Translations under genes and position numbers: made by a program
In this document: piece after piece, positions 52,118-56,820 of the stretch
Layout: each line of letters starts with the position of its first letter
Numbering within the stretch: the first letter of the stretch is position 1
Notes under the pieces: generated by a model
Databases searched by the model: none
Seen by the model: the letters and a program-made list of their open reading frames with translations, nothing else
What the model was told of the DNA's origin: nothing
Assembly: GCA_016839745.1 (NCBI GenBank)
Contig: JAEOTS010000044.1
Coordinates: forward strand, 30,286 to 94,285
Reading direction: 5' to 3'
From: Promethearchaeota archaeon
Lineage (GTDB): Archaea; Asgardarchaeota; Lokiarchaeia; Sigyniarchaeales; SOKP01
Length of the DNA stretch: 64,000 nt

Positions 52118-53371
52118 ATGAACGGAAAAGAGAGTAACAGTAAAGAAGTGGAAAATAACAACCTTGATAATCGTCAAAACGAGAAGGAAGATTTAGAAGC
52201 TACAGCGTCAGATTCAGATGATTTTATTGAGATTTCGACTAAGGAACACTATATTCAGAAATTTGGAATTGATCCCGCCGAATCACCCATTTTTATATCA
52301 TATAACGCCTATAGGCGTATTGTTGGGTATGCTATGCGATATGGAAATGATGATCTACCACAAAGAAGTTGGCGAGAAGTCTACGGCATTCTAATAGGAT
52401 CGATAAAGGAAAATAAAGAAGTAATTATTAATGACGCGATCCCCGTAATGGTAGGAGGTAGAGCATATGTTGAATATAAAAGTAAGCATTACGTAGATAC
52501 TGCTCAATTTAACACTGCAATATATGAGAGAGCAGTCCAAGATAATAAAGAAGACTTCTTTGTAGGATGGTGGCATACGCATCCAGGTATCGGTTTTATT
52601 TTTTCGCCACGAGATATTGAAACTCAGTTGTTTTATCAAGGTGTAAATCCCTACGCAATTGCGGTAGTATTCGATCATTGTCAAAAAGGATCAAAATCTT
52701 ACTATCTTGGGATTGCTGGAATAAGGTTAAAAAATCCAGATCGGGGCATGTTTGCTACATATTCAAATGCTATTGAACTTAAATTCGAATTTGAAAAAGA
52801 AAAAATGGTTAAACAAGTCGAAAAAGACATAAAAGAGATTAATAAAAACATAGGAAATGCTTTGAAACAAATCAACTTTATTGATGAGGTATTGCGGAAA
52901 AAAGGCTTAGCTCAACTTCAAAGGAATTTCGGCCTCATAATGGTTTTAAAAAGAGATGTTAAAATTACTGAAGATGAATTAGAAGCTGAAGAGGATGATT
53001 ACTATTTGTATGAATGGGATCCTGAAATTGACAAAAAGATTTACAGAATTCCTAAATTTAGAGAAAAAATAGAAAAAGAAATAAAAAAATACGAAGAGAT
53101 TCTAATTAATCTGAAGAAAACCGATCAAACGACTGATTTTAAGAAAAAAAAAGCAAAATTTAGCAAAAAAATCAAGGAAATGTTGGTAAAACCAAATGAA
53201 TGGTATAAAAAAATAATAGGCGATTTTACTAAAAGCATTGAAATTATTTTTCCATTATTTGATTATTTAGATACAGACGAAAGAAAAATTATTGAACATT
53301 TTGAGGAAAGGAGCTCTGAATATCAAAAGATATTGGACGATCTCAATTCTCGTTCGGATTTTAACTTATGA
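52118..53371 (+). CDS. JAMM/MPN+ (Rpn11/CSN5-like) metalloprotease with C-terminal coiled coil
   Basis: EVYGILIG, GWWHTHPGIGFIFSPRD (E..HxH..S..D), AVVFD. Confidence 0.9.
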   Translation: MNGKESNSKEVENNNLDNRQNEKEDLEATASDSDDFIEISTKEHYIQKFGIDPAESPIFISYNAYRRIVGYAMRYGNDDLPQRSWREVYGILIGSIKENKEVIINDAIPVMVGGRAYVEYKSKHYVDTAQFNTAIYERAVQDNKEDFFVGWWHTHPGIGFIFSPRDIETQLFYQGVNPYAIAVVFDHCQKGSKSYYLGIAGIRLKNPDRGMFATYSNAIELKFEFEKEKMVKQVEKDIKEINKNIGNALKQINFIDEVLRKKGLAQLQRNFGLIMVLKRDVKITEDELEAEEDDYYLYEWDPEIDKKIYRIPKFREKIEKEIKKYEEILINLKKTDQTTDFKKKKAKFSKKIKEMLVKPNEWYKKIIGDFTKSIEIIFPLFDYLDTDERKIIEHFEERSSEYQKILDDLNSRSDFNL

Positions 53372-53558: not shown

Positions 53559-53882
53559 ATGCCTAACGATACAACACTTATAGTTAGAAATCGAACAGAT
53601 AGGGAAAAAACAATTAAAGATGCTATTTTTGCCTTTTCAGGGGGGACGAAATCATTATTAATAAAAGGTGAAGGAGAAGAGATTTCAACCGCTGTTGAAG
53701 TTGCTGAAATTTTAAAAAATCGCCTTTATCCTGGCGTAGAAATTGCTAATGTTTCACTAGGTAGTCGTCCTTATTTCGAAAGAAATCAACGTAGAAATTA
53801 TAGGAGAGACAATCAATCTAATAAAAACAAAAAAGATTTAATTTCTAATATCGAGATAACCATCTCTAAACCACAAATGTAA
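53559..53882 (+). CDS. Alba-family DNA/RNA-binding protein
   Basis: LIKGEGEEISTAVEVAEILKNR...VSLGS...ISNIEITI. Confidence 0.8.
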   Translation: MPNDTTLIVRNRTDREKTIKDAIFAFSGGTKSLLIKGEGEEISTAVEVAEILKNRLYPGVEIANVSLGSRPYFERNQRRNYRRDNQSNKNKKDLISNIEITISKPQM

Positions 53883-54929: not shown

Positions 54930-55307
54930 CTATTTTGCTTTATAAATTTTAGTGTTCAAGCCATTCGTAGCTTTTAGTAATATTTCTAGGTTATCAGATA
55001 CTAAACCTATTTTATTTACTTTATTAGGCATTTCAGTATTTTCCAGAAGTATAAGCAATTCATCAGTTTTAGGATTATAAATAATATCTCCTTTCTCAAC
55101 GCTTTTAACTGATTTTGGATTATATCCTTTATAAATTTCAATACCGGGAAGCGTCCAATAAGTTTTTGAGCCAAAACTAAATCGACCTCGTAAAATTATA
55201 GGTAATTTATCAACGATTGCGTCTGTGGATAATGGTGCGATGTGTCGTAGTAATTCACCATTAATAATTCCTATTCCGAAGAGATCTATCTTTATTCTTA
55301 CGGACAT
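54930..55307 (-). CDS. cyclophilin-like fold protein (DUF369-like)
   Basis: RHIAPLSTDAIVDKLP, VEKGDIIYNP, VNKIG. Confidence 0.7.
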   Translation of the reverse strand: MSVRIKIDLFGIGIINGELLRHIAPLSTDAIVDKLPIILRGRFSFGSKTYWTLPGIEIYKGYNPKSVKSVEKGDIIYNPKTDELLILLENTEMPNKVNKIGLVSDNLEILLKATNGLNTKIYKAK

Positions 55308-55421: not shown

Positions 55422-55429
55422 TTTAAATA
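55422..55429 (+). promoter_or_regulatory. TATA box of the candidate ncRNA
   Basis: TTTAAATA ending about 23 nt upstream of the 5' strand of the terminal helix (55452). Confidence 0.55.
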
Positions 55430-55451
55430 GATGATTATGTATATGTCATAT

Positions 55452-55950
55452 TGGACAATAGTATAAATCATTGGATTATAATACAGAATTACAATTTAAA
55501 CAACGAGCTTGTTGTTGCAAAATTGATAAATGATTCTTAAGTTCTGGAGTTTTTTTCTTCAAACCAGAGTTAATACTTACGCCTTGATTACCATTCGGTT
55601 TTATTTAATTATGTTCTTATAGTGTTGTATCCTAAATTACAGGCAAGATTGATATTTGTTTAGGAGATTACTATTATTTATTACGCTGGAGCAATAATTT
55701 TGTAAAGAGAAGCAATTTAGTTAAAATTGACATGAAATAAAGTATAAATTGGAACATATTTGCTTGAACTCTTGTTGAATTTAGCAGTTTTTTTCGCTTG
55801 CTACACGAGACATTCAAACTTTATATGTCTTTAAAATAAAATTATTAGCCTCCTCAATAGAGCTTTGATCCAGATACGATTCATTGGAGTAAGAGATTGA
55901 TTTCCTTTGAAACATGTTTTCTGAGATAATCGGAGCTACTATTGTCCACC
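55452..55950 (+). ncRNA. candidate large structured non-coding RNA (~500 nt), family not recognised
   Basis: Perfect 12-bp terminal helix TGGACAATAGTA/TACTATTGTCCA, many nested helices with G-U pairs on the + strand, upstream TATA, downstream T11, no long ORF. Confidence 0.7.
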
Positions 55951-56820
55951 TTTTTTTTTTTCGTTCAGAATTTTAAAGTCTAGAGGAGTATCAATGTCAT
56001 AGAAATTATTCTCTGGACTAACCGATACGGCAAAAAAATGCTTTTCTCTCTCGAGCATTAAGTTTACTACTTCGCGAATAGTACGAAATTTGACTGAGCT
56101 AGCGAGATCTTTAATTGCTTTAACATATGCGTTGTTAAATATAAAAATGGGAATAACCTGTTTAATCACTTCTTGATTAGAAATGGAACTCAATTTTTCT
56201 TGAGAAATCTCTTTAACAATCGCTTTTGAGTCCTTTTCTTCAATTCTTAAATAAGAGATACTTTTTTCATATTTAGGGTAGTATTTTTCATACTTTTTTT
56301 TTAACATATCGGTTCTTATCTTCCTATAAAATATAATTGAATTATTGATAACTAACGAGTAGTTCTCTAATAAAAGGTTTAGAATTTCTTGAATTAGATT
56401 GAAATCAAAAACAGTATCTCCTGGAAAAACCATAAATAACTTATCTTCTTTAAAGATCTGATTATTTTTTGTAATACTTAAAAATGAAAATAGAGGACCT
56501 AATTTGTAATCATCTCCAGAACTATGAATAATGATAGAATCTTCACCATACTGGTTTTTTAATTGAGGAGAGTTTACAAAATCTGCAATTTGTTCCCCTA
56601 AATGTCCCGTTACCACAACGATTGGATCCAGCTTTAAACTTATTAAGTTAGAAATAATTAAAGAAAGAATAGATTGATTATTTAAAGATTCAACTTTAAC
56701 AAGCGGTTTTGGAATGTTTTTAGAGATATTTCTAGCGCGTGCACCTTCACCAGCACATAATATGACACTTGTGATTTTTTCCTTAAATTTATTCTTGCGT
56801 TGTAACAATAGGATTTCCAT
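55939..56820 (-). CDS. nucleotidyltransferase family protein (start uncertain)
   Basis: ILCAGEGARA..IPKPL, VTGH, PGD, YDIDT. Confidence 0.85.
   Translation of the reverse strand: MEILLLQRKNKFKEKITSVILCAGEGARARNISKNIPKPLVKVESLNNQSILSLIISNLISLKLDPIVVVTGHLGEQIADFVNSPQLKNQYGEDSIIIHSSGDDYKLGPLFSFLSITKNNQIFKEDKLFMVFPGDTVFDFNLIQEILNLLLENYSLVINNSIIFYRKIRTDMLKKKYEKYYPKYEKSISYLRIEEKDSKAIVKEISQEKLSSISNQEVIKQVIPIFIFNNAYVKAIKDLASSVKFRTIREVVNLMLEREKHFFAVSVSPENNFYDIDTPLDFKILNEKKKGGQ
55951..55961 (+). terminator. oligo(T) archaeal terminator
   Basis: T11 run immediately after the terminal helix + CC. Confidence 0.6.

Follow-up and report, generated by a model that had tools for sequence, protein, structure and literature searches.

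OLE, ROOL, GOLLD and the raiA motif are large orphan non-coding RNAs of bacteria. In archaea, to our knowledge, very few large non-coding RNAs are known beyond rRNA, RNase P RNA and SRP RNA. In the window (the whole 64,000-nt stretch of Promethearchaeota DNA analysed in this study), a 631-nt gap between a cyclophilin-like gene and a nucleotidyltransferase gene very probably holds a stand-alone non-coding RNA gene, which is predicted to run on the + strand from 55453 to about 55950, a length of about 500 nt. The RNA appears to represent an undescribed family of one Asgard lineage, and in type it is reminiscent of the orphan RNAs of bacteria. Like these RNAs as they are generally known, it is several hundred nt long, has its own promoter, is restricted to a lineage and is closed from end to end by a helix. 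It differs from them in being archaeal, in having no Rfam match to any of them, and in its far less conserved interior, in which no intricate conserved tertiary fold is evident. No description of the RNA was found in the literature, of which our coverage was incomplete.

Several other RNAs resemble it in part. The animal Pol III RNA 7SK has a short conserved end helix by its 3' hairpin and U-tract, and occurs in open and closed forms. The end helix of the archaeal RNA likewise lies beside a 3' hairpin and a U-tract, an analogy only, with no sequence match. Archaeal RNase P RNA (RF00373) has a closing helix of similar length; the RNA described here carries an ACC-U tail and, unlike RNase P RNA, does not conserve CR-I/CR-V and P4. 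RNAs bound by Alba-family proteins, such as the P3 domain of RNase P/MRP RNA and yeast telomerase RNA with Pop6/Pop7 (PMC11621453), also combine a small conserved core with size-variable arms, and there is an Alba candidate at this locus. In contrast to them, however, the present RNA is without P4, catalytic core, template or link to a reverse transcriptase, and we infer the binding. Expanded 5S rRNAs contain insertions of 13-109 nt (PMC7812874). By eye the three-way layout is shared with them, but the RNA would need about 380 inserted nt.

From its distribution among genomes, the RNA is best explained as a housekeeping gene of one Lokiarchaeia (Promethearchaeia) family. It is single-copy in the source genome and syntenic in 13 of the 13 sampled genera of this family; the relatives carrying the 3' motif of the RNA are Promethearchaeota (Lokiarchaeia) MAGs, including contig SOKP01000020. 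The two flanking genes are the same in 33 of 33 loci of the source genus, and the other genera were reached by following the neighbour genes. This yielded 71 distinct full-length copies from 11 genera, with lengths of 343-790 nt (median 483). Two further genera were added through a model of the promoter and 5' end, which scored 32-53 bits in seven of eight family genomes. In 72 other Asgard genomes the same model reached at most 21.5 bits, with partial matches, a range in which a diverged homologue could be missed; those borderline matches outside the family that were inspected lay inside ORFs or lacked the closing helix, and were rejected as homologues. A metagenome scan added 28 copies, all at the same locus. 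There, 28 of 30 pattern matches closed the helix and the other two were cut off, while 53 matches elsewhere gave only four weak chance closures. The RNA was not found at the cyclophilin-like and map loci of other families, and a loose pattern search across the phylum returned noise only. Pattern matches in viruses were not real; with one copy at one locus and no true viral copy, a multi-copy MITE or other mobile element was rejected. Two genomes contain two copies of the RNA with duplicated neighbours and are probably strain mixtures. In a genome of the sister family (L256:1535-1660, G050), a promoter and then a leader of about 125 nt, which a 15-bp helix closes, precede an ABC-transporter-like gene; this leader is possibly a cis-regulatory RNA and not a homologue of the large RNA.

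The neighbourhood had been described as an aspS-map block in an earlier, sequence-only reading of this DNA, and the gap indeed borders the nucleotidyltransferase gene, followed by map and aspS. That reading had also reported that the gap holds no long ORF, and no conserved ORF was found in it. It had not noticed that the closing helix reaches, with its 3' strand, into the stop codon of the convergent gene (Table 1). In genus g19 the nucleotidyltransferase gene has been lost and the RNA is kept, and in genus g23 the cyclophilin-like gene upstream has been replaced and the RNA stays. Since the RNA outlives loss or replacement of either neighbour, it behaves as an independent gene. A conserved membrane-protein gene is located two genes from the RNA; the same protein is also encoded in genomes outside the family that do not have the RNA. 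Signs of insertion were seen at some loci. In L208/L244 (G341:C17), a transposase-like insertion, judged by eye, separates the RNA 3' end from the nucleotidyltransferase gene, and L243 (G348:C170:3200-5000) has two RNA 3' ends separated by an ORF, as if an insertion had occurred there together with a partial duplication.

The ends of the gene are marked by a promoter and a terminator. In 65 of 71 copies, the distance from the start of the TATA box to the first G is 30-31 nt, in a search that allowed a wider range of spacings, and the start site was placed at G55453 because of this spacing. The promoter and terminator proposed from the sequence (TATA box, CC and T11) are present, and both the TATA spacing and the U-tract recur in the copies. 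The + strand orientation deduced earlier also agrees with the U-G wobbles in the closing helix, and folding of relatives favours the sense over the antisense strand in 11 of 13.

Comparison shows the closing helix, P1, to be under structural selection. A perfect 12-bp helix (55452-63/55937-48) had been claimed; it is present and supported, but only about 10 bp from G55453 are conserved, and relatives do not share the outer T-A pair. The ends pair at long range, with compensatory changes, over 340-790 nt. Changes on both sides occur at six of ten positions, and the A3-U pair is found in 71 of 71 copies, a set in which P1 pairing is partly built in by a search that demanded nine P1 pairs. In a 30-sequence alignment, 85.8% of the cells of the core (P1, the 3' arm and helix H5) are paired, against 38-50% for slid partners. 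Covariation, proposed earlier as a check, is present in P1 and the core: the core scored 0.149 against 0.109, and none of 500 shuffles reached the core score, although kinship inflates such counts. The strongest single observation is made in two genomes (L196 of G352 and L222 of G238), in which P1 has slid 5 bp outward into the U-tract. There, 9-10 closing pairs remain, and the start site is still 31 nt from the TATA box.

Table 1. Features of the RNA locus in the window (percentages are paired cells in relatives).
Feature	Position	Strand	Remarks
Family-specific Alba2-like paralog, candidate partner	53559..53882	+	1.6 kb from the RNA; 107 aa
Cyclophilin-like gene	54930..55307	-	divergent neighbour of the RNA; PF04126, score under cut-off
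TATA box, A-rich (BRE-like) flank upstream	55422..55429	+	core invariant in alignment
Predicted start site G55453 and P1 5' strand	55453..55462	+	conserved, compensatory changes
CAWUGG motif	55469..55474	+	13-22 nt from 5' end; candidate recognition site
First hairpin with internal loop	55490..55525	+	register differs between lineages; analogues in relatives by eye
Hairpin with U-rich loop	55543..55568	+	moderately conserved; 66% paired; U-tract recurs
Size-variable interior (domain II of the sequence-only reading and neighbours)	55570..55765	+	61-70% paired
Helix H5 (UCUUG/CGAGA) with U-loop hairpin	55770..55812	+	88% paired
Internal AAUAG copy, slip junction	55856..55860	+	can replace inner half of P1 5' strand
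3' arm (domain III of the sequence-only reading), stacked on P1	55861..55937	+	outer helix 86% paired
P1 3' strand	55938..55947	+	overlaps stop codon of convergent gene; kept in g19 without that gene
ACC tail and T11 terminator tract	55948..55961	+	pyrimidine tract after P1 in copies; ACC itself not conserved
Nucleotidyltransferase gene	55939..56820	-	convergent neighbour of the RNA; PF00483/PF12804

Beyond P1, only the short CAWUGG motif, located next to the base of this helix, is near-universal. It occurs in 71 of 71 copies, partly by search design, and is lost in the further copy L222; no covarying partner strand was found for it in the alignment. The interior tolerates deletions of 30-150 nt (L006, L010, L018, L041). 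Its most enriched motif is a 7-mer flanking H5, and the sequence of H5 and the 3' arm is common to about half of the genera. The outer helix of the 3' arm shows compensations in L203, L199 and L224; a kink-turn in this arm was rejected by eye, as the geometry does not fit. Of the 71 copies, 63 contain one or more internal stretches of at least six U, and eight contain none. Genera g1, g18, part of g22, g23 and g25 have the slip junction; g19, g20, g24, g82 and most of g21 lack it. Takeover of the inner half of P1 by AAUAG costs about 4-10 kcal/mol in copies with the junction, and the slipped state is fixed in L196 and L222. We read the junction as a folding intermediate or a terminator-side hairpin, not as a universal switch.

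The nested three-domain fold of the sequence-only reading survives in part. All 17 of its motifs that were checked lie where it had placed them. The closing helix and domain III hold, with pair probabilities of 0.9-1.0 for most pairs plus comparative support, whereas several inner helices do not, most of them being lineage-specific. The pair probability is about 0.01 for the outer helix of domain I (65% of cells paired in relatives), 0.02-0.03 for the domain II stem (61%), 0.0 for the TTGAAT hairpin (67%), 0.27 for the TCTGG hairpin (66%) and 0.02 for the second CAATTT hairpin, and the GAGA (GNRA) loop is not conserved. The CAATTT/AAATTG stem of the first hairpin reaches about 0.9 in the source copy. 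On the suggested folding z-score, this copy is only modestly better than shuffles (z of -1.1 and -1.9), while relatives reach -1.9 to -6.0; thus, the case rests on comparison.

The earlier view that the gap encodes a stand-alone large RNA distinct from RNase P, SRP, tRNA and rRNA is supported. Rfam 15 covariance models, C/D and H/ACA models among them, gave no match inside the gap even at E<=10. Both RNAs that were to be sought elsewhere in the genome were found: a canonical RNase P RNA gene (G000:C130, 136 bits, RF00373 family) and an SRP RNA gene with helix 8, cut by the contig end (G000:C109). SRP RNA was rejected on this basis. A split 23S piece was discarded, as G194 carries the RNA plus a full-length large-subunit rRNA (model positions 1-2987). 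The RNA does not fit tmRNA, having A3-U and not G3-U70 and no conserved tag frame, and no SmpB was found over the cut-off in five genomes. Y RNA was also rejected, with no Ro60 (TROVE) partner in the four family genomes searched.

Alba2 proteins heterodimerise with Alba1. The Alba paralog encoded near the RNA, the one candidate partner that was identified, has Sso10b2/Alba2 as its closest structure and is nearer to chromatin Alba2 than to Rpp20/Rpp25. It is extra to canonical Alba, and shows a long basic, Arg/Asn-rich disordered loop and an acidic change at the usual basic motif. The paralog is present in 124 of 134 family genomes and in none of 26 other genomes of the class, a detected range that equals that of the RNA, although remote homologues give low scores with a protein of 107 aa. 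Canonical Alba alone is encoded in the two sister-family genomes that were checked. In eukaryotes, RNase P/MRP and telomerase RNAs are bound by heterodimers of Alba-family proteins (PMC11621453). The tiny conserved core and the arms, which vary twofold in length, suggest a scaffold, not a ribozyme or guide, and a length of 343-790 nt with few conserved blocks fits a scaffold over an enzyme core. We tentatively propose that this scaffold is bound by the family-specific Alba2-like protein, with a site at the closing helix and motif. The RNA itself would be non-catalytic. P1 would shield both of its ends, P1 and CAWUGG would form the single site that a protein must read, and the long AU-rich arms would serve as binding surface. 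Folding in about half of the genera probably starts with a complete hairpin of the 3' arm; invasion by the 5' end via a 4-bp toehold would then close the molecule. The likeliest partner would be the Alba2-like protein, probably as a dimer with canonical Alba, and its binding would resemble that of Rpp20/Rpp25 (Pop6/Pop7) to large RNAs.

Against an Alba partner, the shared range may merely mirror family-wide gene content, and the whole block is syntenic, so proximity is unspecific. The Alba and RNA genes are apart in g23, on different contigs or at a distance of about 9 kb, and no clear P3-type motif is conserved among the RNA copies. It is rather unlikely, though conceivable, that the locus encodes the first lineage-specific large ribonucleoprotein of Asgard archaea, made of a scaffold RNA of about 500 nt and a dedicated Alba heterodimer. 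If true, this would be an archaeal parallel to the Pop6/Pop7-bound eukaryotic RNAs (RNase P, MRP, telomerase), and Alba duplication and long variable RNA scaffolds would be coupled in relatives of the eukaryotic host. Another gene of the block (52118-53371 of the window) encodes a JAB/MPN-domain protein with a long charged C-terminal extension, and is syntenic with the Alba paralog in G194.

The same architecture would also fit a scaffold or decoy for another partner, such as an Lsm ring held by the U-rich loops, the membrane protein, or the RNA itself through self-assembly as in OLE, ROOL and GOLLD. We regard this as somewhat unlikely: the internal U runs and the membrane-protein gene two genes away speak for it, but eight copies lack such a run and the membrane protein is also found where there is no RNA. 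A ribosome-associated RNA, whether a much enlarged 5S paralog, an expansion segment that stands alone or a decoy of start codons, is improbable. By eye, the RNA shows the three-way layout, and short stretches of it resemble loop A, loop C and helix IV of 5S rRNA; nevertheless, the 5S profile gave a z of about 0.8 on the RNA, no better than shuffled or reversed controls in what is a low-power test, and no equivalent of 5S helix II covaries in the alignment. An intact, permuted 5S gene is also present, as is the full-length large-subunit rRNA of an RNA-bearing genome, and a giant 5S rRNA was rejected. The motif reads UUG in 92, AUG in 6 and UAG in 1 of 99 copies, as a start-codon decoy might, but the frames that follow it extend from 0 to 77 codons without conservation, which also removes a minigene starting at UUG/AUG.

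An origin from tRNA, or tRNA mimicry, would explain the tRNA-like order of an acceptor-like stem, a D-loop-like GG and a T-arm-like block, with large insertions, in a family whose tRNAs carry many introns. Two sister-family genomes also have a tRNA-Arg(CCU) on the same strand downstream of map and the nucleotidyltransferase gene. The latter is a curiosity only; the remaining sister-family genomes are without a tRNA gene at that place. Instead of a conserved 7-bp acceptor, the RNA has in P1 an uninterrupted AU-rich helix of 10 bp; U8, T-loop, anticodon, discriminator and CCA are not conserved; no tRNA model matches and no SmpB was found in the five genomes searched, which makes this origin, including an intron-containing tRNA, very doubtful. 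Equally doubtful is a regulatory role through base pairing, as a guide or as an antisense RNA, directed at rRNA processing, mRNAs or the convergent operon. The conserved unpaired motif and the 3' end that overlaps the neighbour's stop codon would suit such a role, yet rRNA complements occur at chance level only, the motif has just six bases with a flank that varies among close relatives, and the RNA persists where the overlapped gene is gone and matches no C/D or H/ACA model. It is most improbable that the RNA is of a degenerate RNase P/MRP-like kind, in which 55541-47 and 55930-36 would form a P4 pseudoknot. These segments can pair (77% of cells) and resemble CR-I/CR-V by eye, and an Alba-family gene is nearby; however, the 3' segment covaries with a local partner, several genera lack both segments, no model of RNase P or MRP RNA matches, and the canonical RNase P RNA is encoded elsewhere. 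Just as remote is a non-functional locus in which a promoter and terminator are conserved or a mobile element has decayed. The weak z-score of the source copy and the highly variable interior would agree with it, but compensatory end pairing over 340-790 nt in a single copy at a fixed locus argues against it.

A single-locus gene with eukaryote-like size plasticity is kept across an Asgard family of more than 130 sampled species. This points to a core function in close relatives of eukaryotes, and the exact predicted ends, the universal elements and a named candidate partner make the question directly testable.

Other RNA genes of these genomes also showed unusual features. The 5S rRNA gene of the source genome (L053/L054, G000:C17, ~385-520, +) is circularly permuted, with the 3' half first; helix I is closed by a 4-nt loop, and an inverted repeat flanks the gene. 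The permuted form (also L069-L084) occurs in the family of the RNA and several others of the class, with an opening point that varies by lineage, and the sister family has canonical 5S. No description of a permuted 5S was found in the literature. A canonical 5S beside a bacterial 23S gene in L066 (G015:C263) is contamination in the MAG. The tRNA-Arg(CCU) genes of the sister family (L283 of G050, L291 of G054) lie downstream of map, the nucleotidyltransferase gene and a small Cys-rich ORF. In many tRNA genes of the source genome, introns sit at non-canonical positions, and ARAGORN misses these genes (16 tRNA genes detected, versus 21 by motif scan); one intron-bearing tRNA gene is located at the start of the window, at about 8-111.
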